The position numbers and the translations under genes are program-made. From Caldora sp. (lineage in GTDB: Bacteria; Cyanobacteriota; Cyanobacteriia; Cyanobacteriales; Coleofasciculaceae), in contig CBDCVG010000043.1 in the NCBI GenBank assembly GCA_965222765.1, positions 161,053-225,052 of the forward strand: 64,000 nt of DNA, read 5' to 3'. A model generated the notes under the pieces. That model ran no database searches. It was given only the letters and a program-made list of their open reading frames with translations, and had not been told where the DNA came from. Below are positions 1 to 60,317 of the stretch, one piece after another (the first letter of the stretch is position 1; each line of letters opens with the position of its first letter).

Positions 1-1101
1 AAGAATCGCTGTCTTGAGACTAGCAATTAGACGTTGAATGGTAGATGGGTTGAGTTGCTCTATACTCAAACCTTGGGCTATACGTTTTGCTTCAACGTAG
101 TTTTGACTAATAGCCAACAAGTTTTGCACCAATCGCTGTTTACTAGCAGGCTGTTCACGGAACTGTTTTTGGACACCTTCGTAAACCACTTCCCACAGTC
201 GAGGTACACCTACCATCAAATTGGGTTGGAATTTTTGGAAATCTTTTTTGAAATTCCGCTGGTTGGTATACATTTGGGTGCATCCCTGAGAAAGTAGAAA
301 ATACTCCGCCGCTCGCTCGTAAGAGTGCCAAGTAGGTAGTATAGAAAGGATGCGATCGCCTGGTTGGAACACTAAGACTGCACCAAAGGTGGTAACTTGG
401 TGCATTAGGTTGCCATGGGTCAGCATTACACCTTTAGGTTTGCCAGTCGTACCAGATGTATAGATCAGGGTTGCTAGAGTTTCCCGATTGTAGTTAAAGC
501 TTGTTAGTTGATGGGATGCTCCAGCAAGCATTAGCTGGTTGTAGTTGAGAATTTGCCCAGTTTCCTCTGCTGGAGGCTCTTCTTCTGAGAGGAGAACAAC
601 CCACTCAATCGGCAGTTGATCCAAACGCTCTTGCAGTTTCTTGAGGGTATTAAGGTTTTCCACCAGTAAACCAACGCTGCCACTATCAGCCAAAATATAA
701 AGCAGTTCCTCTTTTTCTGCTTGGGAACTACGCACCACATTCGCTGCTCCTGCGGTCATGGTACCCTGGTCAGCAATCAGCCATCGGGGACTGTTATCGG
801 CAAACAAGGCAATTCTCTTAGGAATACCAGCTTCATCTAATCCTGGTTGGAAGCCAATTGCCTGCAAACCAGCGGCAAATTGCTGAATTTGCTGGTGCAA
901 CTCGGCATAGGTCAAACTTGTAGGCTCAGCACCGTAGGCTCCTACAGCATGGGGATCTTTGAGGACAATAGTGCTGCCAAAGCTTTGAGCAGCTAAGGGC
1001 CAGACATCTGTTAGCAACTCAACTGAAGAATAATCGGCACTGCGTTGGAGATTAGTCAGCTCTTGCTGGGTAAGGCGGTTGGTAGGATGGTTTTTTAACA
1101 T
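1..1101 (-). CDS. AMP-dependent synthetase/ligase (long-chain acyl-CoA/acyl-ACP synthetase-like). The N-terminal ~366 aa are present; the 3' end runs off the window start.
   Basis: Minus-strand translation starts at the ATG at 1101..1099 (MLKNHPTNRLTQQELTNL...). It contains the AMP-binding signature IYTSGTTGKPKGVMLTHGNL. The six-frame track missed it because there is no stop inside the window. Confidence 0.85.
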   Translation of the reverse strand, partial: MLKNHPTNRLTQQELTNLQRSADYSSVELLTDVWPLAAQSFGSTIVLKDPHAVGAYGAEPTSLTYAELHQQIQQFAAGLQAIGFQPGLDEAGIPKRIALFADNSPRWLIADQGTMTAGAANVVRSSQAEKEELLYILADSGSVGLLVENLNTLKKLQERLDQLPIEWVVLLSEEEPPAEETGQILNYNQLMLAGASHQLTSFNYNRETLATLIYTSGTTGKPKGVMLTHGNLMHQVTTFGAVLVFQPGDRILSILPTWHSYERAAEYFLLSQGCTQMYTNQRNFKKDFQKFQPNLMVGVPRLWEVVYEGVQKQFREQPASKQRLVQNLLAISQNYVEAKRIAQGLSIEQLNPSTIQRLIASLKTAIL

Positions 1102-1225
1102 AACTCCCCCATTTGGGTCGGTTTTATGTTTCTACCATATTCCTGTACTGAGGGAGTAGAGAAGCTTCGGTAGACACAATTGTTTCTGTCTGCGATTTGT
1201 TGTTTGTTGTTTCTGGAGTTTTAGC

Positions 1226-1327
1226 GCACCGTAACGGAATTATGTCATCCTGAGCGATAGCGAAGGACCTCCAGACGGCCGGTGATGCTTCACTATCACC
1301 TCAGCATAACAGTTGAGTGCGTAAGTC
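1226..1327. repeat. ~100-bp dispersed element, copy A (gcaccgtaa...gtcatcctgagcg.tagcgaagga...cagttgagtgcgtaagtc)
   Basis: About 90% identical to 38190..38291 in the same orientation. It lies ~120 bp upstream of the start of a minus-strand gene. Confidence 0.7.
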
Positions 1328-1390
1328 CTTTAAATTCCAAAAGCGATCGCATTTTCTAGGTTGAACAATGTAGTAGAGATTAATGTGTTG

Positions 1391-1816
1391 TCAAGCGGCT
1401 TGCTCTTCTTTGACTGTCACAGATAGTTTCAAACCTAGCTCGTTTAACAGTCTTGCAATTACAGGAAGTCTTGGCACTTCTTCCTGAAAAAGCAATTGAT
1501 AGTAATTCTCCAAATCAGAATTAGGTTCGTTTGAAGCTTCAATCAGACTGCTGTGGGCTTCTGCTACATTTTTCAATGCTAGTAGAATATGCTCAAGATC
1601 ACCATCCTCCAAGACAGTATCTAGATAAGCAGCCGCCTCTGCCGGATCTTTTAAAGATTCGATTAGATAGGATTGGTAGCTCTTATGAGTTGGTATTTCG
1701 TCTTTTGTTACGATAGAGCTAATTCCCTTGGCTGTGCCTCCATAAACCCCATATTCTAATCTAGTTTTGAAAATACATAAGTAATAATACTGAATTTTAT
1801 GTCGCCAACACTTCTC
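1391..1816 (-). pseudogene. HigA-like addiction-module antidote (TIGR02684-like) remnant. It has an open frame but no canonical start until a TTG at 1612.
   Basis: The translation ...HKSYQSYLIESLKDPAEAAAYLDTVLEDGDLEHILLALKNVAEA...PRLPVIARLLNELGLKLSV matches the antidote-family pattern (fDpaeYL..peaiaaYLnaaLedGD...vL.aLG.rLsv). The upstream part of the frame is overlapped by the AT-rich T5orf172 insert boundary. Confidence 0.35.
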
Positions 1817-3169
1817 TTATTAGTCGTATTAGCCTTAAGTGGTGTATTGATATACTCAGGTAGTGAATTAATAAAAATACAGCGTAAGAATGACAAACTA
1901 CGAGAAGAATTACTTAGGTATGAAAGTCTTTCTTCTCTGGAAGAAGAAAAAATTAAACTATATTCAAATATTGCCGACCTTGAAAGTAAACGAGAATTCT
2001 TAAACACTCAAATTAGAGAACTTCAACAGAAGTCTGGTGAGCTTGAGGCAAAAGCTTATCTTCAGGCTATAGATTCTTATGAACCAAAATATGATTTTAT
2101 AAATTCTGTAGATTACATCAATCGACTGCAAAACATTAAAAGACAGCAAGAAAGAATGCGAAAAAATGAACAAGCATTTATTTGTAATACTCAATGGAAA
2201 GTGAGAGAAAGTGAGAGAGAAGGAACAAAAATGATAAAAGACCTTCTCAAGCTGGTAGAGTTTTCATTTGAAACTCAATGTAAGTATAACACCAAAGAAG
2301 TTAGATACAATAATGTTGATAGTTTAAAGAAAAAAACAAATACCACTTTTAAAAAAATAAATAATTTTTTAAAAAAGATAGATTGTAGAATTTCAGTTGA
2401 GTACTTAGAACTCAAGTTGATAGAATTAGATCTACATTATGAGTTAGAAGAAAAAATACAACAAGAAAAGGAAAGAGAGAAAGTAATTCGCGATCAAATT
2501 AGACAAGAAGAGAAAGAGCGTCGTCAATTAGAAAAGGCTAGAAGAGAAGCTGAAGAAGCTGAGGAAATAGAAAAGCAATATGAAGAAGACATTGACAAAC
2601 TGCGTCGAGAAATGGAACAAGCAGTAGGTCTACAGCTAGACGACTATAATCGTCAAATTAAACATTTACAGGAGCAACTTGGTAAAGCTCAAATAAATAA
2701 AGAAAAAGCTATTTCAACTTTCACAAGACTTAAGTCCGGCTACATTTATGTAATTTCTAACATTGGATCTCTTGGACGAGATGTATATAGAATATTTATG
2801 ACTAAAAATAGTAATCCAGATGCATATATCAGAACAATGAATCCTATAGTTCCATTCCAATTTGATGTGCAGTTCAAGATTTTTTCAGAAGATGCTTCAG
2901 AGACAGTACAGCATTTACATCAGGAGTTCAATGATAAAAGAGTAAATACAGATAATCAAAGAAGGGAGTTTTTTAAAGTTTCATTTGATGAAATCGATCA
3001 GTTTGTACAAAAAATTTATAGAGAGACTGGAGCTTTAACAATTGAAAAACGTGAAAAAGTACCTCAGGCTCTTGAATATCGTAGAACTAGAGCTGCTGAG
3101 CGGAGAAAGGATAATCACACAAATTTAAATAATGTCTATGCACAAGAAGGTCAAATGGCTCAAGAATAG
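1799..3169 (+). CDS. DUF4041 coiled-coil protein with a C-terminal T5orf172 (GIY-YIG-like) domain, sitting in an AT-rich insert
   Basis: The N-terminus has a TM helix plus long coiled coils (E/K/R/Q-rich). The C-terminus reads GYIYVISNIGSLGRDVYRIFMTKN...VPFQFDVQFKIFSEDASETVQHLHQEFNDKRV...REFFKVSFDEI, the typical T5orf172 arrangement. GC drops sharply from ~1750 to 3200. Confidence 0.6.
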   Translation: MSPTLLLLVVLALSGVLIYSGSELIKIQRKNDKLREELLRYESLSSLEEEKIKLYSNIADLESKREFLNTQIRELQQKSGELEAKAYLQAIDSYEPKYDFINSVDYINRLQNIKRQQERMRKNEQAFICNTQWKVRESEREGTKMIKDLLKLVEFSFETQCKYNTKEVRYNNVDSLKKKTNTTFKKINNFLKKIDCRISVEYLELKLIELDLHYELEEKIQQEKEREKVIRDQIRQEEKERRQLEKARREAEEAEEIEKQYEEDIDKLRREMEQAVGLQLDDYNRQIKHLQEQLGKAQINKEKAISTFTRLKSGYIYVISNIGSLGRDVYRIFMTKNSNPDAYIRTMNPIVPFQFDVQFKIFSEDASETVQHLHQEFNDKRVNTDNQRREFFKVSFDEIDQFVQKIYRETGALTIEKREKVPQALEYRRTRAAERRKDNHTNLNNVYAQEGQMAQE

Positions 3170-3202
3170 GAACGAATTAATAAAATACTGAACTTGAATA
3201 AG

Positions 3203-4588
3203 TTATAAAGAGCGAATGATTCTAAAACCAATATTTTGAGAGTTTTTGTTAGTATTACCGTGCCAACGGTAAGCAGAGCGACATCGTAGGGGTTCGTTAC
3301 GCCATGAGCCACCACGCATGACACGAGTTTGATTTTCACTATTGTCTAGCCATTTATCTCCATTAGTAGGTGCATCATTGTAACTATCATGCCAATGATC
3401 TAAACACCACTCCCAAACATTACCATGCATATCGAACAGTCCAAAAGCATTAGCTATCTGGAAATGTCCCACTAGAGTAGTTTTTTGAAGATAAATTCCT
3501 TTAGGTTCTGAGCGATAGGGATAGCGACCATCATAATTAGCTAAGTTGCTAGTAATAGTTTCCCCAAAGTGAAAAGGGGTTGTAGTCCCAGCACGACAGG
3601 CATATTCCCACTCTGCTTCACTAGGAAGGCGATACTCGTGACCTGTTTTTTGAGATAAGCGATCGCAAAACTCGACCACATCATGCCAAGAAATTTCGGT
3701 AACGGGGTGACTTTTACCTCCAAGACGCGACGGACGAAGTTTGAGCTTCTGACGGACTTCAGTTAAAGAAGCAACTTCTTTCCACTGTGCTTTTGTAATA
3801 GGGTACTTGCTTATTAAAAATGGTTTGATTGCTACTGAGTGTTGAGGTCTTTCATTAGAGTATCGCTTTCCTTCTGTTTCCGGTGAACCCATTAAAAATG
3901 CTCTTCCCGGAATATAAACCATCTCTAAAGTTACCCCATTGCTAAGGTCTTCTGTTAAGTAGTGAGCTTGTCTTTGACGACGGCTAATCTCTTTGCCTTG
4001 GATATCTACCGTCACTGTTGTAAATTCAAAGGCTTGAATACCAGGAAGTGATGGGATAACTAACTTAGCTTCTTCTGACTCCTTCAATTCTTCTGCATTT
4101 TGACTAGAAGTAGAAAGGATAAACTGATTATCTGGCTGCCTAGTGAATTGTGACTGGGTTGGAGATTTTAAATTAGTATTGCTATACGTGCCTGTAAAAT
4201 TTTGCGAAGTGACTTGACCAAAGTCTGAGTTGAAACGTTTCAATGGTTGACTGCTTTTGTACTCGATACATTCGCGATTGAGTTTTTGAGTATCTAAAAC
4301 TGTAATCTCCGCGATGATATTGTTTAGTTTATTCCTGGCTTCAAAACCAACCCACGCACTATTTGCAAACTCATTAAGGAATTTTAATGATTGAACTTGT
4401 CCTTCACAGAAGATGAGTTCAATCAATTCTGAAAAAAAGACTAAATTATTTTTTTCAAAAGAATCTATTTTGGCACTTAGATGCTCAAATCCTGTGATCA
4501 TCAAGAGCGCTCTACGTTCTGGAACAGTTTGAGTCTTCGGCAAATAGGCTAGCAACTCCACTAACTGAGATTTGATACTCATAATCAT
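3203..4588 (-). CDS. Effector protein with an N-terminal adaptor (EAD-like) domain and a C-terminal formylglycine-generating-enzyme (FGE-sulfatase/SUMF1) domain
   Basis: The C-terminus carries RLPSEAEWEYACRAGTTTPF...GNVWEWCLDHW...MRGGSW...RSAYR (the FGE-sulfatase family signature). The N-terminal ~90 aa (LVELLAYLPKTQTVPERRALLMITGFEHLSAKID) are homologous to the N-terminus of the adjacent protease gene. Confidence 0.8.
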   Translation of the reverse strand: MIMSIKSQLVELLAYLPKTQTVPERRALLMITGFEHLSAKIDSFEKNNLVFFSELIELIFCEGQVQSLKFLNEFANSAWVGFEARNKLNNIIAEITVLDTQKLNRECIEYKSSQPLKRFNSDFGQVTSQNFTGTYSNTNLKSPTQSQFTRQPDNQFILSTSSQNAEELKESEEAKLVIPSLPGIQAFEFTTVTVDIQGKEISRRQRQAHYLTEDLSNGVTLEMVYIPGRAFLMGSPETEGKRYSNERPQHSVAIKPFLISKYPITKAQWKEVASLTEVRQKLKLRPSRLGGKSHPVTEISWHDVVEFCDRLSQKTGHEYRLPSEAEWEYACRAGTTTPFHFGETITSNLANYDGRYPYRSEPKGIYLQKTTLVGHFQIANAFGLFDMHGNVWEWCLDHWHDSYNDAPTNGDKWLDNSENQTRVMRGGSWRNEPLRCRSAYRWHGNTNKNSQNIGFRIIRSL

Positions 4589-4630
4589 TGAACTTTAGAT
4601 GCTTGTAGAACCTCTCCAAAACTGGGTAGT

Positions 4631-5686
4631 CTATTGTGCTGCCCTGAGCAGATTTACAAGCTGTGAAGGTAAGTCAGCTAAAATACTCTCTACCAGTATG
4701 CCTTCATTTCTGAAGTAACGCTGCTGAGTTATTGGTTCAGAGATATTAACTCCAGCATGATGCAAAGCAACAACCTCCCACATATCATTAAAGACTGGAG
4801 AGCCAGAAGAGCCTGGTAAGGTAGAGGTTATATACTGCACCACATTACTACCCACGTATTGAACAAAGTTGTTTTGTAGTGAAATTTGCTTAGGTTGTCC
4901 TAATGGGTGCTGAATAATATTAACTCGGTTATCCTTACGAATCACTTTCGGTAAGAGTGGTAAACAGCTCCATTTTTGTCCAGGTTCCCCTTCAAGTTGA
5001 ACTAAAGTATAGTCAAGAGCTTTGTTTGTATGAAAAACTCCATTAAATTTAGCTCGATACTCATCTGTTGGTTGTGCTTCTCCTTGAAAGTTCTCTTCGT
5101 AGTTAAAACGAAAAATTGTATCTGACAGTAAATTTGAATCAGGTAAAACATGATTGTTAGTCATAAACAAATCCTGAGTCACTAGAAATCCTGTACCTGA
5201 CCAACGTTCTTGGCTTGTTCGTACCCCAACATAGGCAACTGACTGCCCTACTTGAATCCCCTTTTGCAAGAATGAGATTGGGCGCAGCGTATTCTCACCA
5301 ATTATGTTCTCTAACACCTCTGTGGGAGTTTCTCTACCTCGCCACTGATCAATAGCAGGTAAAGTAGAGATAGGAGTCATCATCTCATACTTCGTCAGCA
5401 ACCTGTCTAAAAATTCTTGCTGCTGAACTCCTACAAAGCCTTTCAGAGTGTTTAAGAACAACCCTAGTGCCTCATGGTCATAGGTTAAACGCCCGCGATT
5501 AGACAAATAGCTCACGATCTCACTAACTGCCACAAATGAAGCACCAGAAAGATCAATCATTGGAGCTAATTCTTGTAGTCCTGCTAGCTCTAAAATTTGC
5601 TGACGCGATCGCTGTGTAGTTAGCTCTGGTAGCTCTTTTAGGAGAGTTATTAACTGCTTGCGGTCTTCAATTTCTAAATTGACCAT
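4631..5686 (-). CDS. Effector protein with the same N-terminal adaptor (EAD-like) domain and a C-terminal trypsin-like serine protease domain
   Basis: The protease motifs are GTGFLVTQDLFMTNNHV and GSSGSPVF (Ser-His catalytic region). The N-terminus MVNLEIEDRKQLITLLKELPELTTQRSRQQILELAGLQELAPMID aligns with the FGE gene's N-terminus. The first ATG is at 5686; a TTG at 5707 is also possible. Confidence 0.8.
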   Translation of the reverse strand: MVNLEIEDRKQLITLLKELPELTTQRSRQQILELAGLQELAPMIDLSGASFVAVSEIVSYLSNRGRLTYDHEALGLFLNTLKGFVGVQQQEFLDRLLTKYEMMTPISTLPAIDQWRGRETPTEVLENIIGENTLRPISFLQKGIQVGQSVAYVGVRTSQERWSGTGFLVTQDLFMTNNHVLPDSNLLSDTIFRFNYEENFQGEAQPTDEYRAKFNGVFHTNKALDYTLVQLEGEPGQKWSCLPLLPKVIRKDNRVNIIQHPLGQPKQISLQNNFVQYVGSNVVQYITSTLPGSSGSPVFNDMWEVVALHHAGVNISEPITQQRYFRNEGILVESILADLPSQLVNLLRAAQ

Positions 5687-5758
5687 ATAAATAACAAACT
5701 TGTGCAAATAATGCCGAAAAACAAACGTTTGAAACTGAATAACTCGTGATACTCCGAA

Positions 5759-6661
5759 TTAATGTAGCGACTGGAGAGCTTTTACCTGCCCTTCAGATAA
5801 TCCCAATAGTTGAGTAACTTGTTCAATATCCATTCCTGTTGCCAATAAATTTCGGGCAGCTTGCAGTAATTGAGCTTGAGTCTCTTCCTTAGATTTTTCT
5901 GCTTGCTCTGTATCGGTTAACAGCCAGTTACCTGCACTATCGCACCAGCGCAACCAATAACCTGGGATATTTTCAAACACCCCTTCCCAAATTCCCAAGC
6001 CAATTTCTAAATCAGCTAACCAAGCGATCGCATTTTCTGGGTTGAGCGATTGCTCCTGATATTGTCCTCCATCCAGCTTAAAATAGCGCAACTTTTGAGT
6101 GTAGCGGCTATAGACAAGGTAGTGAGGAATCCGCAAATATCGCTCATATACTTCTAGCTTGGCAGGAAGTTTGGTGGCAGTTTGTTCTGAGCCATTCTCC
6201 CTAGGATTAACAGCTGGAGTATCTGATTCTGCATTTACCGTTTCATTGTAGAAGCGTCCCAAATCTTCAACTTCAGTACCTGGAGACAAAAACTCAATCG
6301 CCACATAGGGACTTTTGCCTTCCTGCCAAATGACATAGCTTCGCCGTAGCTCTTTACCATCATACAAACGAGGCACATCAATTGCTAAAAACCAATCAGG
6401 ACGCTTATACCAAAGAGGATGATTGACATCGTAGTAGAGATTGAGGTCAGAGGCAGTAAAATAATTTTCACGAGTGTAACCACTCAACTGCAGGGTGCGA
6501 CTGAGCAATTGTGGTTGAAGGTCATGAAATTCATCAGGCAAACCGGGCTCCTCTGGGTTTTCACTGGGCAGATCATACATCGTGGGCAGTGTTTCACGCG
6601 CTGATCTTGGGGGATCTACCTGTTCGAGTATTGGTTTATGTGTGATGGAAACCATAGCCAA
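5759..6661 (-). CDS. Uma2 family endonuclease (DUF820, PD-(D/E)xK-like) with a C-terminal extension
   Basis: Contains the motif stretch LPDEFHDLQPQLLSRTL...YFTASDLNLYYD...PDWFLA...VIWQEGKSPYVAIEFLSPGT, typical of this abundant cyanobacterial family. Confidence 0.75.
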   Translation of the reverse strand: MAMVSITHKPILEQVDPPRSARETLPTMYDLPSENPEEPGLPDEFHDLQPQLLSRTLQLSGYTRENYFTASDLNLYYDVNHPLWYKRPDWFLAIDVPRLYDGKELRRSYVIWQEGKSPYVAIEFLSPGTEVEDLGRFYNETVNAESDTPAVNPRENGSEQTATKLPAKLEVYERYLRIPHYLVYSRYTQKLRYFKLDGGQYQEQSLNPENAIAWLADLEIGLGIWEGVFENIPGYWLRWCDSAGNWLLTDTEQAEKSKEETQAQLLQAARNLLATGMDIEQVTQLLGLSEGQVKALQSLH

Positions 6662-7041: not shown

Positions 7042-8454
7042 TTAGGGACGCTCCTGGCCTCTTTGCAAGAACAGAATCACGATCGCCCAGTACAAAATGA
7101 GGGGATTTGCCGGATTCAAAAAAGCGACTATTCCTAGGATAATCAGGGTGGCAATGGTAGTGCGTCGAGCTATTTTACGTCCGTAGATTGCCTGAACAAT
7201 TCGCCCTCCATCTAACTGCCCTGCTGGCATTAAGTTCAAGGCTGTGATGAGTAAGCCTAACCAACCCATAATTGTCAGTGGGTGAATGTCAACTAATGTC
7301 CCTTGCAAAGAAGCTCCAAGGAAAACTCTTGCCATCCCTCCCACCAAAATAGAACCTTGGAAAAACTGAGATGGAACCTGCAAAGAACTGCCTTCATGAG
7401 AAAGCAATAATCCGCCAATGAGTAGCAGTAGAGAAACAATACCACCAACTGCTGGTCCGGCTAGAGAGATGTCAAACAAGGCTGTGCGGTTAGCCAACAG
7501 AGATTCAAAGCGGGTAATAGCACCAAAAGAGCCGATTTGCCAACTGGGGATGAAAAAAGGTAGACCGATGCGCACATTGTAGCGCTTCCCTTGCCACCAA
7601 TGGCCGAGTTCGTGAGCGATCAACACTGTCCAAATCCCGACACTAATGGGTAATGCTTCTGGAAATCGCTCCAGATTATTGAAAAAATCAAATTTCAGTA
7701 GCAAGCTAGCTGCTTCCAAAGTAGTGGCAATGGTAACAAGGAACAGGACAGCTGCCAGAATTTTCTGGGATACTGTTGCTGGTTCTGGATCATTGCTACT
7801 AGGTAGAACAATGATTACCGGTTTACCTTCAGGTCCTTCAACTAAAAATAACCGATAGCGATCGCCTAATCGCTCCTCCAAGTTGGTAGATAAGCGGGAA
7901 TACACAGTCTCTGGTTCTTTTCCCCGCAAATTACCTTTAAAAATCACCCCTTCCTGATAGGGAATTGTTTCTGTGCTAAAAAACGTATCAATGCCAAAAA
8001 TTTCTTGGATGTTCTTGAGATCTTCATCGGGAATGGGAGCTATCTCAGGAGCAACATTCTTACCCTGGGAAGGCGGTGGAGAATTTTCAGCAGTTGTGCT
8101 ATTCTCTGCATCTGAGGTTTCGATTGTGCTGCCTTGTTGTTGCTCGTTTAGTAGCTTCTTCGTACGTTCTCGCAATAACTCATCCTGTCCAGCAGCACGC
8201 AAACGCTTACCCAAGTAGATATACAACCCAGCAGAAGCAACTATTAAGAATAATATGCCGACGATATTGACGTAAATGCCAGCAGCAAGCAAGCCAAAAA
8301 ACAGCAGCCAGGGAACTGTTAAAACGACTGATTGCGACCAGGCTAAGATTCCTAGTTTACCGAAAGACTGAGCACGTTTGAAGCCCCAAGCTAACACACC
8401 AAGCGCCAGCAAGATAATCAAAATAGTTGCAGTAGTCTCTGATCCGTTAAACAT
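7042..8454 (-). CDS. Site-2 protease family zinc metallopeptidase (peptidase M50) with an N-terminal multi-TM region
   Basis: Contains the HExxH motif LIAHELGHWWQG, multiple hydrophobic helices, and the C-terminal LDGGRIV motif typical of M50. Confidence 0.8.
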   Translation of the reverse strand: MFNGSETTATILIILLALGVLAWGFKRAQSFGKLGILAWSQSVVLTVPWLLFFGLLAAGIYVNIVGILFLIVASAGLYIYLGKRLRAAGQDELLRERTKKLLNEQQQGSTIETSDAENSTTAENSPPPSQGKNVAPEIAPIPDEDLKNIQEIFGIDTFFSTETIPYQEGVIFKGNLRGKEPETVYSRLSTNLEERLGDRYRLFLVEGPEGKPVIIVLPSSNDPEPATVSQKILAAVLFLVTIATTLEAASLLLKFDFFNNLERFPEALPISVGIWTVLIAHELGHWWQGKRYNVRIGLPFFIPSWQIGSFGAITRFESLLANRTALFDISLAGPAVGGIVSLLLLIGGLLLSHEGSSLQVPSQFFQGSILVGGMARVFLGASLQGTLVDIHPLTIMGWLGLLITALNLMPAGQLDGGRIVQAIYGRKIARRTTIATLIILGIVAFLNPANPLILYWAIVILFLQRGQERP

Positions 8455-8496
8455 TTTGGTTATCCGTTATTGTTTATTAGCCAAATACTTGTGGGC

Positions 8497-9426
8497 TTAA
8501 CTATCTGCACTACCATTTTTCCAACTTTGGACAGCGGCTCTGAGATTACCTTGGTGTTGAGCAAGTAAGCGATCGCTTTGTTTATTATCTAATCTAGTCC
8601 AATGCATTAGCAATGCTAGTTTCACCTTGCGTCCACTACGCTCTAGTAATAAACCAGCCTCTTTCCGGCTCAAACTGGTGAGGTCTTGCAAAATTCGCAG
8701 TGCCCGATCATGCAGTTTTGTGTTAGTAACTGCCACATCTACCATGCGATTACCATAGACTTTGCCTAACTGCACCATAACTCCAGTCGAGAGAATGTTC
8801 AATGCCATTTTAGTCACAGTACCAGCTTTTAGTCGTGTGGAGCCAGTTAGTATTTCAGGTCCCACGAGTAATCGAATATCTAAATCAGCTTCAATGCTTA
8901 CTTGCTCAGTTGGTACACAAGCGAGCAAAATAGTAGTCGCTCCCCGCTGTCGTGCTGCTTGGATTGCTCCATGGACAAAAGGTGTAGTTCCACCAGCACT
9001 AATACCAACAACAACATCTAACTCAGTGATATGACGATGAGCAATTGCTTCTGCTCCATCTTCTTTTCGATCTTCCAAATCTTCTGAGCTGCGCACCAAT
9101 GCTCCTGCTCCTCCAGCAATTATCCCCTGTACCAACTCTGGTGGCGTACAAAAGGTGGGGGGACACTCAGCAGCATCAAGTACTCCTAAGCGTCCACTGG
9201 TTCCGGCTCCGACATAAAAGAGGTGTCCCCCCTTGCCTAGAGCCTTAGCTGTACAATCAATTGCTTGGGCTAGTTGGATGCGAGCAGCAGCGATCGCGCT
9301 GAGAGTTTTGGCATCTTCGCGATTAAACAACTCTACCAGTTCTAGGGAAGTTAACTGGTCAAGGTTCTGGCTATCGGGGTTAATTTGCTCGGTCAAAAGA
9401 TGACCCCGCTCTTGTGAATCAGTCAT
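8497..9426 (-). CDS. murQ: N-acetylmuramic acid 6-phosphate etherase
   Basis: SIS-domain protein with GKGGHLFYVGAGTSGRLGVLDAAECPPTF and a conserved C-terminus. Confidence 0.88.
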   Translation of the reverse strand: MTDSQERGHLLTEQINPDSQNLDQLTSLELVELFNREDAKTLSAIAAARIQLAQAIDCTAKALGKGGHLFYVGAGTSGRLGVLDAAECPPTFCTPPELVQGIIAGGAGALVRSSEDLEDRKEDGAEAIAHRHITELDVVVGISAGGTTPFVHGAIQAARQRGATTILLACVPTEQVSIEADLDIRLLVGPEILTGSTRLKAGTVTKMALNILSTGVMVQLGKVYGNRMVDVAVTNTKLHDRALRILQDLTSLSRKEAGLLLERSGRKVKLALLMHWTRLDNKQSDRLLAQHQGNLRAAVQSWKNGSADS

Positions 9427-9530
9427 TGGTTATTAGTCATTGGTTATTGGTCATTGGTCATTGGTTATTGGTCATTAGTCATTGGTACAAACAACAAATA
9501 ACAAACAACAAATTACAACAATCCTTCCAA
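9417..9530. repeat. STRR-type tandem heptamer array (CATTGGT/TATTGGT, then ACAACAA-like)
   Basis: About 10 tandem 7-nt units are visible directly. Confidence 0.9.
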
Positions 9531-9920
9531 CTGACGCCGAATCTGATCCAAATTAGACATTTCTACTTCTTCGACTTCCTCCACCATTTCCTTGGTGTCT
9601 GCTTGCAAGTCATCTGGTTCAAGATTAGCTTCTGGTGGAGCTAGGAAAAGGCGCTCCAGCGTGTTTTCTGGAACAAATCCTGCGGGGACTAACTGCCAGT
9701 CATAATCGAATTGTTCAGTGTCAATATCTTCCATATCGATTTCCTCAACACTCACCGGTGGAAAATCTTGAGCTTCTAACAGAAGTCCGTAGCGGGTGGC
9801 ATCGTCTTCTGACTCAAACATCAAAACTACGGTGCGATCTTGAATTTGCAGGGAGTGAACTCCTTCGTTTTCTGTGCCGACATTGTATAAGAGGATAAAT
9901 ACTCGCTTAGGTGAAGCCAT
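9513..9920 (-). CDS. Conserved acidic cyanobacterial protein (possibly DUF3110-like); function unknown
   Basis: 135-aa ORF with a coherent N-terminal beta-rich region and an acidic tail. The domain assignment is tentative. Confidence 0.45.
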   Translation of the reverse strand: MASPKRVFILLYNVGTENEGVHSLQIQDRTVVLMFESEDDATRYGLLLEAQDFPPVSVEEIDMEDIDTEQFDYDWQLVPAGFVPENTLERLFLAPPEANLEPDDLQADTKEMVEEVEEVEMSNLDQIRRQLEGLL

Positions 9921-10332: not shown

Positions 10333-10631
10333 TCTTGCTAAATTTATATAGTTGGGATCCTCTTCAATAAGCACTAAGGGCAAAGCGGTGTACCACTTTA
10401 CCTGCACCGAAGACCTAATATATGCTTCGGTTACCACTTGGAAAAAAGTTGCGGTTGTCAGGAATCTAGTACAAGAAGGCTCCAATGCAGAAGACTGTAA
10501 TGTTTATGGTATCTGCTTTTTTGCCTATCGTTAAGAAGCTTGATTATTTCCACCGTACTGCACTAGATAGCCACCTTGTAGCCTTATTGAGCGAGTCATC
10601 TGTTTATACCCTTACAAAACCCTTATTGTTG

Positions 10632-12245
10632 ATGAAATTTTCCTACGAACTTTCAACAGCTTTGCTTGGTGCAGCAGCAATCATACTGGTGCAACCTCAA
10701 ATCACTCTAGCTTTGACAGCTTCGGAGGTTAATGCTATTGCTGAAAAGATTACTGTATTGATTGCGCAAGAGGAACAACAAGTTGCTTCAGGAGTGATTG
10801 TTGGCAAAGAAGGAAATACTTATTTTGTTTTGACTAGTCAACATGTAGTACAAACTGAGGGTCAGTACCAGATTATGACTCCTAGTAATGCTAAACATTC
10901 TGTTAACTACAGCAACATTATCAAATTACCTGGGATTGATTTAGCTATCTTACAATTTATTAGCCCAAACATTTATCAAGTTGCTACCTTTGGTAATTCC
11001 AGCGAAGTAATTGTGGGTTCTCCAGCTTATATTTCTGGGTGGCCAAAACCTGGTTTTGCTCTCCAAGATGAAGCACCAATTCGTCTTTTTCACTCTGGAC
11101 AAATTTCAGCTCGTCAACCTCTCAAAGATGGTTACGAGTTAATCTATACTACCCCTACTCGTCAAGGAATGAGTGGAGGACCGGTGCTCAATGAAAATGG
11201 CCAGCTGATTGGTATTCATGGGCGTACTGATTTACCTACCCTAGAAACAGATCCCAAGCCTTGGGGAGTTAATTTAGGTATTCCCATCAACACGTTCATT
11301 GAATTAGCTCCTAGTCTTTATACTGAACAAGGAGAAATCAAGCTCAAGGCGCAAGCTTACCAGGAAGCCATTGCCTATTTTAACCAGGTACTAAAGTTTA
11401 ATCCCAACTCTGCTGCTGCCTATAATGGGCAAAGTTATGCTCATTTTGCTCAGACAGGGTATGAGGAATCTATTCAGAAGGCAACCCAAGCAATCAAGAA
11501 TAACCCTAAATTAGCTGAAGCTTACCTCATCCGGGGGGCTAGCTATGCTCAGCAAGGAAGTCACCGCCAAGCAATTGAGAATTTTAACGAAGCGATCGCA
11601 ATTAATTCTCGTTTTGCTGATGCCTATGCTTTGCGAGGGGTAAGTAAGGCAAAAATAGGGGATTCTAATGGAGCTTATAAGGATGTTGAACTGTCTCTTA
11701 AACTAGCTCCTAAAAGTTCTATTGCCTACATCTGCCTTAGCCAAATTCACTCCCTTGTTGGCTACAGGATAGGTGCAGGGGAGGCTAGTAGGATTGCAGA
11801 TGAACTCTTAGATACTTCTAGGGAGATAAATCCTTATCAAATGACGCTCAATCAAGTACTGGAAAGCCGTTTACTTCAAGATCTTGTTGTACAGACAACG
11901 CCAACTTCTTCTAACCCTCAGACAGCAGTAAATCCAGGAAATGAGTACTATACCAACACCATTAATCTAGTTGAGGCTTGCAAGTCTTATGATGACTCGC
12001 CTCACCAAAATGAGGCACTGCTGTGGCTACAAGATCAAATCCCTAAGTCTACTCTCAAAACATTTACGATGATGTGGCGACTGCAACTCATCTTTGACAT
12101 GGATAAGGAGCCGATGGAGCTCGTTAACGTTTGTCAGCATTATGAGGGTAAGGAACACCAAGATAAGGCTTTAGAAAGGCTACAGACTCGAATTAACCAG
12201 GTAACAATTATTGAGTTTGCCCAAAGGTGGTTCCAAACTCAGTAA
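10632..12245 (+). CDS. Secreted trypsin-like serine protease with TPR repeats and a C-terminal domain of unknown function
   Basis: Signal-peptide-like start MKFSYELSTALLGAAAIILVQP. The protease motifs are VLTSQHVV and GMSGGPVLNENGQLIGIHG, followed by about four TPR units. An alternative upstream ATG lies at 10485. Confidence 0.75.
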   Translation: MKFSYELSTALLGAAAIILVQPQITLALTASEVNAIAEKITVLIAQEEQQVASGVIVGKEGNTYFVLTSQHVVQTEGQYQIMTPSNAKHSVNYSNIIKLPGIDLAILQFISPNIYQVATFGNSSEVIVGSPAYISGWPKPGFALQDEAPIRLFHSGQISARQPLKDGYELIYTTPTRQGMSGGPVLNENGQLIGIHGRTDLPTLETDPKPWGVNLGIPINTFIELAPSLYTEQGEIKLKAQAYQEAIAYFNQVLKFNPNSAAAYNGQSYAHFAQTGYEESIQKATQAIKNNPKLAEAYLIRGASYAQQGSHRQAIENFNEAIAINSRFADAYALRGVSKAKIGDSNGAYKDVELSLKLAPKSSIAYICLSQIHSLVGYRIGAGEASRIADELLDTSREINPYQMTLNQVLESRLLQDLVVQTTPTSSNPQTAVNPGNEYYTNTINLVEACKSYDDSPHQNEALLWLQDQIPKSTLKTFTMMWRLQLIFDMDKEPMELVNVCQHYEGKEHQDKALERLQTRINQVTIIEFAQRWFQTQ

Positions 12246-12946: not shown

Positions 12947-15076
12947 TTACGAGATCAGAAACAGCACAATTAAGGAGATTGCGATCGCTAACATCAAAGT
13001 ACCTAAAATGATATCTCCTAGGTGATACTCATGGGGAGTTGCTTTCGTAGATTGTACTTTATCTCCCTTATCCTCCCATCTCCCCATCTCCGTGTCAGGT
13101 GCGTCTCGCGTCTCCGCGTCTCCATTAATCTCCCTATCTACTACATTTACTTGCAACTCTGTATGAGGGGTTTCAGAAGTTATATCCTGCATTGACTCTA
13201 GCCATTCTGCTACCCGTTGAGCTTCTGATAACTCCGGTTTCAGTTTAGTGAGGGCTTCTCGCCATAGAGCAACAGCTTTGTGTTTGTTGCCCTGTTGTAC
13301 ATAGAGAATACCCATATTGACTAGAGTTTGACCTTCTTTGTTAATATCTCCTAGTTTTGTGAAGCTGCCTAGGCTCTGTTCGTAACAATCCCTAGCTTTA
13401 AGCCAATCTCCTTGCTGGGAATAGATATTAGCTAGATTGCCCAAACTCATCGCTTCTGCATGAGAGTCTTCCAACTCCCTGAAAATGCTTAGACTCTGCC
13501 CATAGCGCTCGATTGTTTTCCCCCAATCTCCTTGCCTAAAATAGACTTTACCCAGGTTAGTTAAGGTTTGAGCTTCTTCTTGGGTATTGCCTAGCTCGCG
13601 GGTTGCTTCCAAAGCCCACAATTGAGTCCGTTCCCAGTCAGCCAAGTAAGCACGGATATCAAAAAAGTTAACTAAGCTCTTGGCAAAGGGAACTACTATA
13701 TCCCATGCTTGAGCTTGGTAAGCCCATTCTAAAGAAGCTAACAAGTTGCTGCGCTCAGTCTCAAACCAGTTTAAGGCTGCCGCCAGCAAGTGTGGCTCAA
13801 TAGCTTCTATAGATTGGTGGTTCAAGACTTTCGTGAAATTCTCTGAATTCTCAAGATACCAGCGTGCCACCCTCAAACGAGTTGCTTGCCGTTCCTCTAC
13901 TAGCTCCTCTTGAGCCAATTGCCCTCGGGCAAAAGAGCGCACCAAATCGTGGAAACGGTAGCGCTCCCTTCCAACAGGCTCCAACAGTTGCCTCTCAACT
14001 AGATAATGTACAGATTCCTTGGCGACAGCTGGCTCAACATCTAACAAGGAAGCAGCTAAGGGGAGCGTAAAGTTAGGTCCGGTTAACAATCCCAGTAAGC
14101 GAAACAGGCGAGCAGCAGTTGTATCGAGCTCCTGATAGCTGAGAACAAGGCTAGCTCGTACATCCAAATCGCTCAGGTACAGTTGTGCTAGTCGTTGCTG
14201 CTCATCAGCAAGTTGATGTGTGTATTCTGCTAGTTCCCAGTTTGGTTGATTTCGTAGAGTATTACCAGTGATGCGGATAGCTAGGGGTAGCCCATTGCAA
14301 AGATTGATCAAGTTTTTGCTTGCTTCCAGTTCAGCCTGAGAGCGTTCTACTCCTACCAGATCCCGTAGCAGAGCCAAGGCATCTAGTTCCGTCATCACTT
14401 CTAAGTCAACGACAGTAGCTTCCCTTAGATTCTCAAACTGTTTGCGCGTTGTAACTAGGACTCCACAAGTGGGACTATTTGGTAGCAAAGGCCGTATCTG
14501 AACCTCATCCCGAGCATTATCCAGCAGTACCAAAGCTCGTTTATCTGAGAGCAAGGAACGGTAGAGTTCAGTTCTCTCTTTGAGAGTTTCAGGTATCAAA
14601 TCGTCTTCGATACCCAAGACTCGCAAAAAACTAGCTAACACTGCCAATGGCTCCTGGCTCTGGCTCTCACTTCCCCTGAGATTGATGTATAGTTGAGCAT
14701 CTGGAAAATACGACTGTAGTTGATGGGCAATGTGGATAGCAAGAGTTGATTTACCGACTCCTGCTATACCAGTCAATGTACAGAGCTTAACAAGGCTCTC
14801 GCCTTGTAAGGCAGAAGGAAAGAGTCCTTCATCCTTCTTCAAAGTGGGGTCTTTTTCTTTAAGCTTTGGTGTTGCCTGTTGCAAACAAGCTTTCACCTGC
14901 TCTAATTCTGCTTGGCGACCTATAAAGTTGGCAATATCAGAAGGGAGCTGATGTATGGATGTAGGCTGAACTAAGGTACTTTCAAACAGCTGCATGACTT
15001 TTTTATTGTCACCAGCTACCACGCCTTCTACTAAATCGTGAAAAATTAGTTTGTACTTTGGTCTATCTTCAGCCAT
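12947..15076 (-). CDS. NB-ARC (STAND) ATPase with TPR repeats and a C-terminal transmembrane anchor
   Basis: The P-loop is GIAGVGKSTLA and the Walker B-like motif is LVLLDN. There are about five TPR units (...NLGKVYFRQGDWGKTIERYGQSL...). The C-terminus ends ...LGDIILGTLMLAIAISLIVLFLIS (a single TM helix). Confidence 0.8.
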   Translation of the reverse strand: MAEDRPKYKLIFHDLVEGVVAGDNKKVMQLFESTLVQPTSIHQLPSDIANFIGRQAELEQVKACLQQATPKLKEKDPTLKKDEGLFPSALQGESLVKLCTLTGIAGVGKSTLAIHIAHQLQSYFPDAQLYINLRGSESQSQEPLAVLASFLRVLGIEDDLIPETLKERTELYRSLLSDKRALVLLDNARDEVQIRPLLPNSPTCGVLVTTRKQFENLREATVVDLEVMTELDALALLRDLVGVERSQAELEASKNLINLCNGLPLAIRITGNTLRNQPNWELAEYTHQLADEQQRLAQLYLSDLDVRASLVLSYQELDTTAARLFRLLGLLTGPNFTLPLAASLLDVEPAVAKESVHYLVERQLLEPVGRERYRFHDLVRSFARGQLAQEELVEERQATRLRVARWYLENSENFTKVLNHQSIEAIEPHLLAAALNWFETERSNLLASLEWAYQAQAWDIVVPFAKSLVNFFDIRAYLADWERTQLWALEATRELGNTQEEAQTLTNLGKVYFRQGDWGKTIERYGQSLSIFRELEDSHAEAMSLGNLANIYSQQGDWLKARDCYEQSLGSFTKLGDINKEGQTLVNMGILYVQQGNKHKAVALWREALTKLKPELSEAQRVAEWLESMQDITSETPHTELQVNVVDREINGDAETRDAPDTEMGRWEDKGDKVQSTKATPHEYHLGDIILGTLMLAIAISLIVLFLIS

Positions 15077-51249: not shown

Positions 51250-52730
51250 AGTTTTTGGTAGTTTTATGGAATCTCTCAATATTTTGTCTGAAGTCAAAAA
51301 TGAGAAATTTTTAATTCCGAGTTTAGAGCAAGGTCAGCTAATTTCACCCTACAGTTACATCTCAAACAATTGTGTCAATTCAAAGCAATCTTAAACGAGG
51401 ATATTTCTCTTTCACAAGCATCAGAAACTATTTGTAGATTTTTTCCTCAAACAAGTCAATGAATTAACACCGGAAACAGTTTTGTTGAAAGTTCAAAAAA
51501 ATATTCATTGAACTAACTGAAATGGTTGATTCAGAACCTCAACAAGCGATAGTAAAAATTGTCAATTCTGGTTCCGAAGAAACGTTTATTAATACTTTCA
51601 AAAGGTCAATTTATATTCTCTTAAATAATTGGAATTCACTGAAGAAAGATTGAATATGTAGAATCATTAATTCAACTAATTAAAGCTAATTTAAACAATC
51701 AAGAACAATCCTCTAGTCAAGCTTGTAAATCAGCTTGAAAAATTGAAATTGTGGCGCAGTAATTTTGCAACTAGTCAGGATTACCAAGAACTGCTAAAAT
51801 CTCGCATTAAAAACCAATAATCATTCCTTAAACAATTGGAGTCATCGCTACAGTTCTTACTTGTTGGTTTATCAATCGATGGATCACAGAAAATCGGTCA
51901 AGGAAAAAGCAACTGCAAAAACTCGCTCTCTTGTACTTAAGAAACAGTTTAAGTCTGAATTAGCAATGTATACAGCTCGTTCAAGCGCAACTTCTAATGA
52001 ACAAAGCAACTCCGATAACCCGACAATAATCGGCAATAAGGTGTTTTCTCTTATTAAGAAAATATTACAAAAACGTGGTTCTTTTAACTATACCAATTTG
52101 GCTCGAATATTTCTTAATCAAGCTCAGGAAATTTCTTACAAAGATTTTAAGCATAACCTTCTCAACTATTTATTTTATTCCCTAGATGAACAAGATTTAG
52201 ACCAATCAACCAAAAAACAACTAGAGCAACAGATAGAAAAACTCTATGAGGGATATCATGATCAAGATTGGGACAATCAATTACTTCTGAGAACGTGCAA
52301 TCGTTTAATTGAGCATTTTACCACATTGAATCAGGCAAATCCTTCTCAGTTATTTATGTTTTTAATAGCCCAAGATAAGGATTTAATTTTAGCAATTATG
52401 CTCCTTAAGCTTATATTGCTTTGCCCACAAAGCCGCACTCATTTAGAATGCTGTCTTGCCCAATTAATTGAACACTATCAAAGTCAGTCAGCATCAGATT
52501 GTCAGTGGTTAATTAACTTTTTAGAAGTTCTGCAAGTGACTCTAAGTGTCTATGCTGAAGATGTGCAGTACAACTTAGTCAAGATGTCAGAAGCACAGCA
52601 AGAAATTTCGGTCAACCTGGAGAGCAATGCCTATCGCATTTTTTCTCAGATGAAAGGGAAAACAAAGAAGGCAGGAGGCAGGAGGCAGGAGGCAGGAGGC
52701 AAACCCTCCCTATGTTTACTCAAGGGATAA
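51250..52730 (+). pseudogene. Decayed gene of unknown function. The 3' 870 nt (51861..52730) are still an intact ORF; the upstream ~600 nt read as protein-like text across all three frames with many stops.
   Basis: Upstream translations such as ...DYQELLKSRIKNQ*SFLKQLESSLQFLLVGLSIDGSQKIGQGK... and MESLNILSEVKNEKFLIPSLEQGQLISPYSY... look like residual coding sequence. Low GC. Confidence 0.4.
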
Positions 52731-58785: not shown

Positions 58786-58847
58786 AAGTAAACATTTGCT
58801 AAAGTAATTCCTTGCTCTGTCTTTCTTACTGATATATTACTGAAACC

Positions 58848-60317
<1,470 letters not shown>

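Follow-up and report, generated by a model that had tools for sequence, protein, structure and literature searches.

The PD-lambda-1 defence system came out of a functional selection carried out in E. coli (Vassallo et al. 2022, PMC9519451) and was renamed SNIPE in 2026, when the E. coli protein was described as inner-membrane-anchored (Saxton et al. 2026, PMC13190303). According to the latter study, DUF4041 of E. coli SNIPE binds DNA and probably the phage tape-measure protein, the GIY-YIG domain cuts phage DNA during injection, and the mutation E414A abolishes the defence. SNIPE is presented there as a single-gene nuclease which distinguishes self from non-self by location, cutting DNA only while it enters through the membrane. 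Here, we describe a SNIPE-like gene in a 64-kb stretch of DNA from a filamentous cyanobacterium, hereafter the window, in whose coordinates all positions are given. The gene lies in a strain-specific 3.9-kb cassette of three genes (1763-5705) beside the remains of a toxin-antitoxin (TA) pair.

The two other genes of the cassette resemble parts of a second group of described systems, the EAD-coupled effectors of nucleoside triphosphate (NTP)-dependent conflict systems (Kaur, Burroughs, Iyer, Aravind 2020, PMC7159879; 2021, PMC8195603). These two papers define the EADs and treat FGS as a cyanobacterial effector or 'neutralising' domain; neither mentions DUF4041, T5orf172 or GIY-YIG. Fusions of orthocaspase, CHAT or TIR domains to FGE-sulfatase in filamentous cyanobacteria have been described in a survey of prokaryotic caspase homologues (PMC3501461). 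Our literature search found no paper that links such fusions to a DUF4041/SNIPE-like neighbour and none that links DUF4041 with cyanobacteria or formylglycine, and the SNIPE paper (PMC13190303) does not mention cyanobacteria, sulfatase or caspase. We consider it probable that the locus as a whole is best explained by a three-gene defence cassette with a sensor-plus-effector mechanism, brought in by allelic replacement, next to a TA pair that decayed through its own lesions.

The SNIPE-like gene (1799-3169, forward strand) is a single open reading frame (ORF) of 456 aa. It matches the PADLOC PD-Lambda-1 profile PDLC03977 with an E value of 6.4e-94 and 313.6 bits, residues 42-446 covering positions 86-484 of the 496 in the profile, and BLASTP against E. 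coli SNIPE gives 35% identity over 346 residues (E 1e-56). The DUF4041 core (Pfam 'SNIPE', PF13250; E 1.1e-10, 41.7 bits against a cutoff of 27) is found at residues 151-206 (2249-2416), and the GIY-YIG fold that marks members of the family is present at the C-terminus as a T5orf172 match (E 1.5e-8; residues 314-406, 2738-3016), where MUG113 also matches. Residues 1-22 (1799-1864) form a hydrophobic helix, predicted to be a membrane anchor: the 19-residue Kyte-Doolittle mean is 2.2 for MSPTLLLLVVLALSGVLIY (residues 1-19), the AlphaFold2 (AF2) model has a helix starting at residue 3, and hydrophobic N-termini line up throughout the cyanobacterial clade to which the protein belongs. NCBIfam assigns no family to the protein. 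Judged by these matches, the gene is a member of the PD-lambda-1/SNIPE family. An initial annotation, made from the sequence of the window, had called both DUF4041 and T5orf172, as the profile searches confirm, and had described the function of this architecture as unknown, which is out of date since a mechanism for PD-lambda-1/SNIPE has been published.

The second gene of the cassette (3203-4588, reverse strand) is convergent with the SNIPE-like gene across a gap of 33 bp. It encodes a 461-aa FGS (FGE-sulfatase-like) protein (Pfam FGE-sulfatase, E 3.5e-54), 75% identical to its Trichocoleus counterpart and with a weakly EAD8-like N-terminus. The third gene (4631-5686, reverse strand) encodes a 351-aa protein in which EAD8 (E 2.1e-24, 86.5 bits) is joined to a trypsin-like serine peptidase (Trypsin_2, E 6.6e-23, 82.5 bits) that retains the His/Asp/Ser motifs TNNHV, LDYTL and GSSGSP; its identity is 84% to the Trichocoleus copy and 79% to that of Nostoc. 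A SNIPE-like gene followed by a convergent FGS gene is also found in Nostoc sp. CCCryo 231-06, a JGI genome, Trichocoleus sp. FACHB-69 and Microcoleus sp. FACHB-SPT15, and behind the FGS gene of these four homologue loci there is usually an EAD8-trypsin, EAD8 or Pepco gene.

The linkage was counted from the SNIPE-like side. Metagenome contigs were scanned with the alignment of the clade and their flanks with local hidden Markov models (HMMs), and the resulting 84 SNIPE-like loci (80 contigs and the four homologue loci) were checked for an FGS neighbour. An FGS ORF on the opposite strand, 0-73 bp past the SNIPE-like stop, is present at 33 of the 84, and these are 33 of the 36 loci of the clade (34 with the window). 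Two of the three clade loci that do not have it are on contigs ending within 352 bp, and at the third (L120) the SNIPE-like gene is split. Among the more distant SNIPE loci, none of the 40 whose flank is 500 bp or longer has an FGS gene, nor do the enterobacterial or viral SNIPE loci examined, and at 80 unrelated cyanobacterial loci the sole FGS match is the SNIPE-linked one. The partners carry EAD8, CHAT, caspase (Peptidase_C14) or TIR at their N-termini. There are at least 16 non-redundant SNIPE-like/FGS pairs, in differing genomic contexts, and the distances between the SNIPE-like proteins correlate with those between the FGS domains (Mantel r 0.91, reached by 0 of 2000 permutations).

Several features of these loci are recorded here as additional observations. 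In Nostoc sp. CCCryo 231-06, two ORFs (118 + 316 aa; L081 9641-10951) make up the SNIPE-like gene, which is likewise split in two in L120 (5992-7365), the one locus of the clade that has ample flank but no FGS gene. Some copies of the cassette adjoin small TA-like pairs, ParE/ParD in Trichocoleus (L097 10060-10622) and DUF5615 plus a neighbour in the JGI genome (L096 5099-5783). Viral contigs yielded only five distant canonical SNIPE matches, none of them FGS-linked, and the cyanobacterial clade was not found there. The two E. coli SNIPE homologues lie in prophage accessory slots (L181 1244-2920; L182 1476-2978), one between the CI repressor and the integrase of a P2-like prophage and the other in a lambdoid nin region beside IS2. 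The FGS gene was also considered as a target of a diversity-generating retroelement, which was rejected: there is no template repeat, and a second copy of 3203-3420 was not found in the window. Consensus scans for promoters and terminators over 1100-6000 gave nothing above shuffled expectation, and no terminator was found between the convergent genes.

The active site of the GIY-YIG domain was compared with that of a 500-aa E. coli homologue from a lambdoid prophage, which was taken as the SNIPE reference since it carries E223, N250, W257, I308 and E414 as named in PMC13190303. In an ungapped BLASTP block, E414 aligns with V370 of the window protein (2906-2908), and the Arg of DRVNEL (E. coli R386) aligns with Y343 (2825-2827). 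The window protein also has F333 in place of the family Gly of the YKIG motif and Q358 in place of His402. Residue counts were made in an alignment of 206 family members, of which 58 are canonical and 142 belong to the cyanobacterial-type clade. G376, R379, R380, R386, E414 and E434 are invariant in all 58 canonical homologues. In the clade, the R386 column holds Tyr in 135 of the 142 members and the E414 column Leu or Val in 125, Cys or Phe replaces G376, and one residue is deleted at position 391; the Gln at the His402 position is found in the window copy, while nearly all others have His. We take R386 to be the position equivalent to R27 of I-TevI. As judged from this conservation, the GIY-YIG domain of the clade is under selection and either inactive or rewired. 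The C-termini differ as well: canonical homologues (L124-L178, L182) terminate in a conserved FP(A/E/S)(S/T)(L/I) motif, those of the clade (L096-L123) are mostly acidic, ending in (D/E)EIA, and the window protein ends in EGQMAQE.

The position of the cassette was determined by comparison with close relatives, which were found through homologues of the TA antidote. A scan of GTDB species representatives with a fragment of aas, the acyl-ACP synthetase (AMP-binding) gene at the conserved left flank, was less useful; the best match reached no more than 70% aa identity, and, the Nostoc CCCryo trio excepted, those genomes did not keep synteny around aas. Symploca sp. SIO2C1 (L085) is 95.5% identical in nucleotides (nt) to the window on both flanks, and its gene order is Uma2, pentapeptide protein, ParA-like ATPase, 249-aa protein, toxin, antidote and aas. 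The 5' part of aas occupies 1-1101 of the window (reverse strand; start ATG at 1101, running off the window in the six-frame translation) and is 95.7% nt identical to L085 from 8595 onward, with Pfam AMP-binding recorded for the orthologue. The blastn blocks pair window 9594-6844 with L085 1-2775, 6716-5706 with 3230-4263, 1750-1698 with 7663-7716 (90.7%) and 1706-1 with 7991-9695. As a result, window 1763-5705, whose limits were set by these breakpoints and by alignment of the junctions, stands in place of L085 4264-7662 (3.4 kb). In this Symploca-like strain, the cassette has Uma2 on one side and, on the other, the HigBA-like TA pair directly upstream of aas. In the relatives, the genes in this slot (L085 4350-7544; L095 479-3664) encode a 495-aa protein of pentapeptide repeats, a ParA/MinD-like ATPase and the 249-aa protein, the last without a Pfam or NCBIfam match; the set may be another exchangeable module.

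The arrangement in the window appears to be the derived one. Symploca sp. SIO1B1, which shows about 87% identity to SIO2C1 and, over short segments, 83-91% to the window, is more divergent and has its genes arranged as in SIO2C1. It was used as the outgroup, and with no more than three or four related genomes available the polarity depends on it alone. Clustered at 90% among about 15 billion proteins, each of the three cassette proteins remains a singleton, and the flanks do have relatives. Nostoc, Trichocoleus, a Nostoc plasmid and metagenomes carry the trio too, at sites unrelated to this one, and in Nostoc it behaves as an indel, with 4504 bp between rplL and a HAD gene versus 619 bp in a relative. 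The cassette holds only its three genes, with no integrase or transposase; no tRNA was found, and neither 1763 nor 5705 shows a target-site duplication or a terminal inverted repeat. At the right flank (5706-5916), which comprises the 3' end of the conserved Uma2 gene (5759-6661, reverse strand) and its spacer, sliding identity and blastn show that identity to SIO2C1 falls from about 95% to 78-79% over the last ~200 bp before the junction. This drop looks like the end of a recombination tract. Given the lack of mobile-element marks and the divergence that rises toward the junctions, the cassette probably came from a related donor by homologous recombination, as an allelic replacement. Arrival of the cassette together with a donor Uma2 like that of L096 was considered and rejected, the Uma2 genes of L096 being unrelated.

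Two repeats lie close to the slot. A 29-nt direct repeat (1341-1369 and 6022-6050), 90% identical and containing the HIP1 site GCGATCGC, brackets the variable region from outside the junctions. A dispersed repeat of about 69 bp containing GTCATCCTGAGCGATAGCGAAGGAC is found at window 1225-1292, L085 3163-3230 (inverted) and L094 423-492, and thus stands upstream of aas in the window but of Uma2 in SIO2C1; it could represent a small element of the MITE-like (miniature inverted-repeat transposable element) kind.

The base composition of the slot only partly reflects these limits. The SNIPE-like gene has a GC content of 31.8% and the region 1750-3200 one of 31.2%, against 41.8% for the whole window; for the gene, z = -2.8, and only 2% of windows of the same length are equally low. 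The low-GC region reported by the initial annotation is therefore real on quantitative analysis, and its left limit near 1750 agrees with the synteny breakpoint at 1762/1763. The change is not as abrupt as had been stated, since the profile declines gradually from ~0.46 at about 1300, is lowest (0.27) at 2100-2500 and reaches ~0.40 again by about 3300. The right limit near 3200 is merely the end of the AT-rich gene, and the strain-specific segment extends to 5705. In all five genomes examined, the SNIPE-like gene is low in GC (29.5-35.8%) and lies 6-11 points under its FGS and trypsin partners, GC at second and third codon positions (GC2 and GC3) being low, and its coiled coils are rich in Lys, Glu, Ile and Asn. 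The low GC is partly a trait of the family, not simply a mark of recent arrival.

At the left junction, the TA pair can be followed through its decay. In SIO2C1, an intact pair stands at the orthologous site, its 114-aa toxin (135 bits against TIGR02683) overlapping the 101-aa antidote by 14 nt, and the same pair is present in SIO1B1 and several metagenomic relatives; such a pair had been named by the initial annotation as the thing to look for in relatives. In the window, the antidote frame is open over 1391-1816 (reverse strand) and scores 36 bits with PF21716 (dnstrm_HI1420; cutoff 27). Its 30.6 bits against TIGR02684 are under the cutoff of 53.7, as are those of the intact L085 antidote (31.9 bits). 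The codon check agrees with the earlier observation that this frame of the TIGR02684-type family has no ATG, the first ATG, GTG or TTG being a TTG at 1612. On the other hand, it is not a remnant as had been supposed: over 101 codons (1391-1696) it is colinear with intact homologues at 91% identity, and its sole lesion is the change of the start codon from ATG to ATA (1694-1696). In an alignment of 13 homologues beginning MPTHKSY, 11 have ATG, one has GTG, and that of Symploca sp. SIO1A3 is a truncated call.

The killer gene is missing from the window, as had been noted, in that no killer ORF lies upstream of the antidote; the ATG and the first 47 nt of the toxin (1743-1698) nevertheless survive, together with ~20 nt upstream. 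A 1-nt deletion makes a stop in this TIGR02683 (RelE/ParE-type, Gp49-like) stub, which spans 12 codons (1708-1743, reverse strand) and reads ATG GAG GCA CAG CCA AGG GAA TTA GCT CTA TCG TAA, or MEAQPRELALS*. A further 274 bp of the toxin (L085 7717-7990) is gone by a deletion between AAGACGA repeats. Its junction, where the blastn segments overlap, is at 1698-1706 (reverse strand) with the microhomology AAAAGACGA, and it joins the toxin stub to the last nucleotides before the antidote start. Symploca sp. SIO1A3 (L094), whose contig ends at the junction, has the same deletion junction; it keeps the antidote ATG, but the antidote has gained 1 nt by an independent insertion, a sign that selection may have relaxed once the toxin was lost. 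An independent orphan antidote with an intact ATG is found in L188 (3315-3676) and L189 (626-987), where only the last ~56 nt of the toxin is left upstream. Since the toxin body was lost through a separate internal deletion that does not touch the cassette, the killer was not excised by the cassette. The TA pair, as read from these alignments, decayed by its own lesions, namely the 274-bp microhomology deletion, the 1-nt frameshift and the ATG to ATA change. The initial annotation had attributed the destruction of the TA locus to the insertion. This holds in part at most: with its junction ~20 bp upstream of the toxin ATG, the cassette probably took away the promoter region of the operon and may thereby have contributed to the decay. 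The antidote is probably a recent pseudogene or orphan.

Taken together, the comparison suggests that the cyanobacterial clade may be a sensor-plus-effector variant of SNIPE. In the proposed mechanism, the SNIPE-like protein would sit in the membrane and recognise injecting phage DNA or the tape-measure protein through DUF4041, acting as a detector or tether rather than cutting by canonical chemistry. It would be coupled to the adjacent FGS protein, to which EAD8-EAD8 pairing would bring the trypsin-like peptidase; elsewhere, caspase, CHAT or TIR fused directly to FGS would take the place of recruitment by EAD8. Sensor and effectors together would carry out the kind of abortive response that fits a filamentous organism. 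In the most specific form of this proposal, which we advance only tentatively, the SNIPE scaffold would have been repurposed into a catalytically dead GIY-YIG sensor that works with a dedicated FGS protease/TIR executioner, forming an undescribed two- or three-gene abortive-infection system.

A number of findings weigh against the sensor-plus-effector reading. The clade has near-invariant residues of its own (R331, Y343, T369, P349) and a largely conserved GRD motif, and it keeps both Tyr residues, His402 (apart from the Gln of the window copy), Asn427/430 and mostly Glu/Asp434, so that a rewired but active nuclease is possible. Among the loci with canonical Arg and Glu, L119, L134, L135 and L138 alone are FGS-paired, and they keep the Gly too, which makes FGS pairing independent of the change in the active site. 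The genes are convergent, which makes co-transcription impossible, and mere co-transfer would also give co-divergence. At its N-terminus, the FGS protein reaches only 23.1 bits against EAD8, under the cutoff of 27 (E 1.6e-4 on the local EAD8 HMM); the homologous partner in L096 carries a strong EAD8 match. In addition, the six-frame ORFs of the window contain no other EAD8 match and thus no EAD8-bearing core NTPase, which is atypical for EAD-coupled systems. The main rival has the SNIPE-like protein acting by itself, as in E. coli, as an active nuclease whose site is rewired, and the FGS and trypsin genes as independent defence genes that merely co-travel in defence islands. The high conservation of the domain, which retains the two GIY/YIG tyrosines, Asn383/386 and acidic residues at 368 and 390, favours this rival, as do the four FGS-linked loci with canonical residues, the convergent rather than operonic order and the single-gene nature of E. 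coli SNIPE. We regard it as a serious possibility but, on balance, an unlikely one: E414A abolishes defence in E. coli and this position is Leu or Val in most of the clade, the Arg386 invariant in canonical proteins is nearly always Tyr, and adjacency within 0-73 bp at 33 loci, with at least 16 non-redundant pairs and co-divergence at the Mantel value given above, is far tighter than ordinary co-occurrence in islands.

The history of the site also allows for other explanations. The initial annotation had proposed that a single AT-rich gene (1750-3200) was inserted into the TA operon, removing the killer and truncating the antidote. The GC break near 1750 does coincide with the breakpoint at 1762/1763, the killer is missing and the antidote has no canonical start, and blastn synteny with SIO2C1 confirms that, measured against close relatives, the region is foreign. 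The segment that these do not have nevertheless reaches 5705 and carries three genes instead of one, the start of the toxin with 47 nt and ~20 nt upstream remains while its body was lost by the internal 274-bp deletion, the antidote is full length, and the junction check suggested at the time found neither a target-site duplication nor terminal repeats, the slot in relatives being filled with the pentapeptide, ParA-like and 249-aa genes rather than empty. We therefore judge a single-gene insertion to be highly improbable. Hardly more credible is an ancestral cassette that SIO2C1 and SIO1B1 replaced with the pentapeptide/ParA-like genes. The small number of related genomes and the single outgroup leave some room for it, but SIO1B1, at ~87% to SIO2C1, is more divergent than the window and SIO2C1 are from each other (95.5%) and yet has the SIO2C1 arrangement, the trio has no relatives at 90% or above although the flanks have them, and the degraded TA state is clearly derived. 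Expression of the antidote from the ATA, a permitted rare start in table 11, or from TTG 1612, to give an orphan antitoxin with an anti-addiction role or a regulator that might act, for instance, on the SNIPE-like gene, which is divergent and lies at a distance of 102 bp, is unlikely as well, though less so than the two preceding alternatives. Its 101 codons are free of internal stops, an orphan antidote with an intact ATG exists in another lineage, and dN/dS (the ratio of non-synonymous to synonymous rates) is 0.22 versus SIO2C1 and 0.13 between two intact copies, but the 9 non-synonymous and 11 synonymous substitutions are too few to judge selection. Against expression, ATG is the start in 11 of the 13 homologues, the product from TTG 1612 would lose 28 N-terminal residues including many near-invariant positions, neither the promoter region upstream nor the translationally coupled toxin is left, and the gene is independently frameshifted in the sister strain SIO1A3.

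Other features of the window were noted in passing. Within 10 kb of the cassette lie a trypsin-TPR gene (10485-12245, forward strand) and an NB-ARC (STAND)-TPR gene (12947-15076, reverse strand); the neighbourhood is rich in conflict-type genes, and EAD8 is on neither of these two proteins. There are two further low-GC patches. The one at ~28.5-31.2 kb contains a 517-aa ORF (29022-30575, forward strand) with 29% GC (GC3 0.18) and a C-terminal HNH endonuclease motif, and the one at ~50.8-52.7 kb contains a 289-aa ORF (51861-52730, forward strand) with no Pfam match. A thiamine pyrophosphate (TPP) riboswitch (58844-58939, forward strand, 66.4 bits) lies directly upstream of an ORF at 58947-60317.

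By comparison with known systems, the TA remains correspond to the HigBA-like pair of TIGR02683 (upstrm_HI1419) and TIGR02684/PF21716 (dnstrm_HI1420). An intact pair of this kind stands at the orthologous SIO2C1 site upstream of aas, whereas all that the window retains is a toxin stub of 12 codons with a frameshift and an antidote that lacks its start. As a natural case of one cassette exchanged for another at a defence hotspot, the site is a clean one, and it shows stepwise TA decay, in which the toxin was lost first and the antidote was then inactivated independently in sister strains.

The partners resemble the EAD-coupled systems in that EAD8 is fused to a trypsin-like peptidase, the neighbouring FGS protein has a weakly EAD8-like N-terminus, and the caspase, CHAT or TIR domains found at other loci are always N-terminal to FGS, in agreement with the cyanobacterial 'syntax' of PMC7159879 and PMC8195603. 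These other partners have architectures identical to those of the orthocaspase-, CHAT- or TIR-FGE-sulfatase fusions of filamentous cyanobacteria. The difference is that no EAD8-carrying VMAP, iSTAND, GAP1 or STAND core is found near the pair or in the 64-kb window; the constant neighbour here is the SNIPE-like protein.

With SNIPE/PD-lambda-1, the window protein shares the order of an N-terminal membrane helix, coiled coil, DUF4041, long helix and C-terminal GIY-YIG/T5orf172 fold. It differs in having Tyr for R386, Val for Glu414, Phe for the Gly of YKIG and Gln for His402, a substitution pattern which typifies a clade of at least 142 sampled sequences, and in having a shorter N-terminal region and an acidic tail instead of FPxS(L/I). 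The gene of the clade is paired with a convergent FGS gene at 33 of 36 loci, whereas E. coli SNIPE acts alone, and the E. coli copies are carried in P2-like and lambdoid prophages, whereas the clade was not found on viral contigs. The defence family itself is known; these features of the clade are not described in the literature that was searched. What is new is that a large cyanobacterial branch keeps the SNIPE scaffold without the essential Glu and the invariant Arg and is tied to an effector-FGS gene in many contexts. If the two proteins do cooperate, the sensing of injection and the killing would be split between two proteins, and the SNIPE family would be linked to the EAD/FGS 'apoptosis-like' conflict systems predicted for multicellular bacteria, supplying these with a testable trigger.

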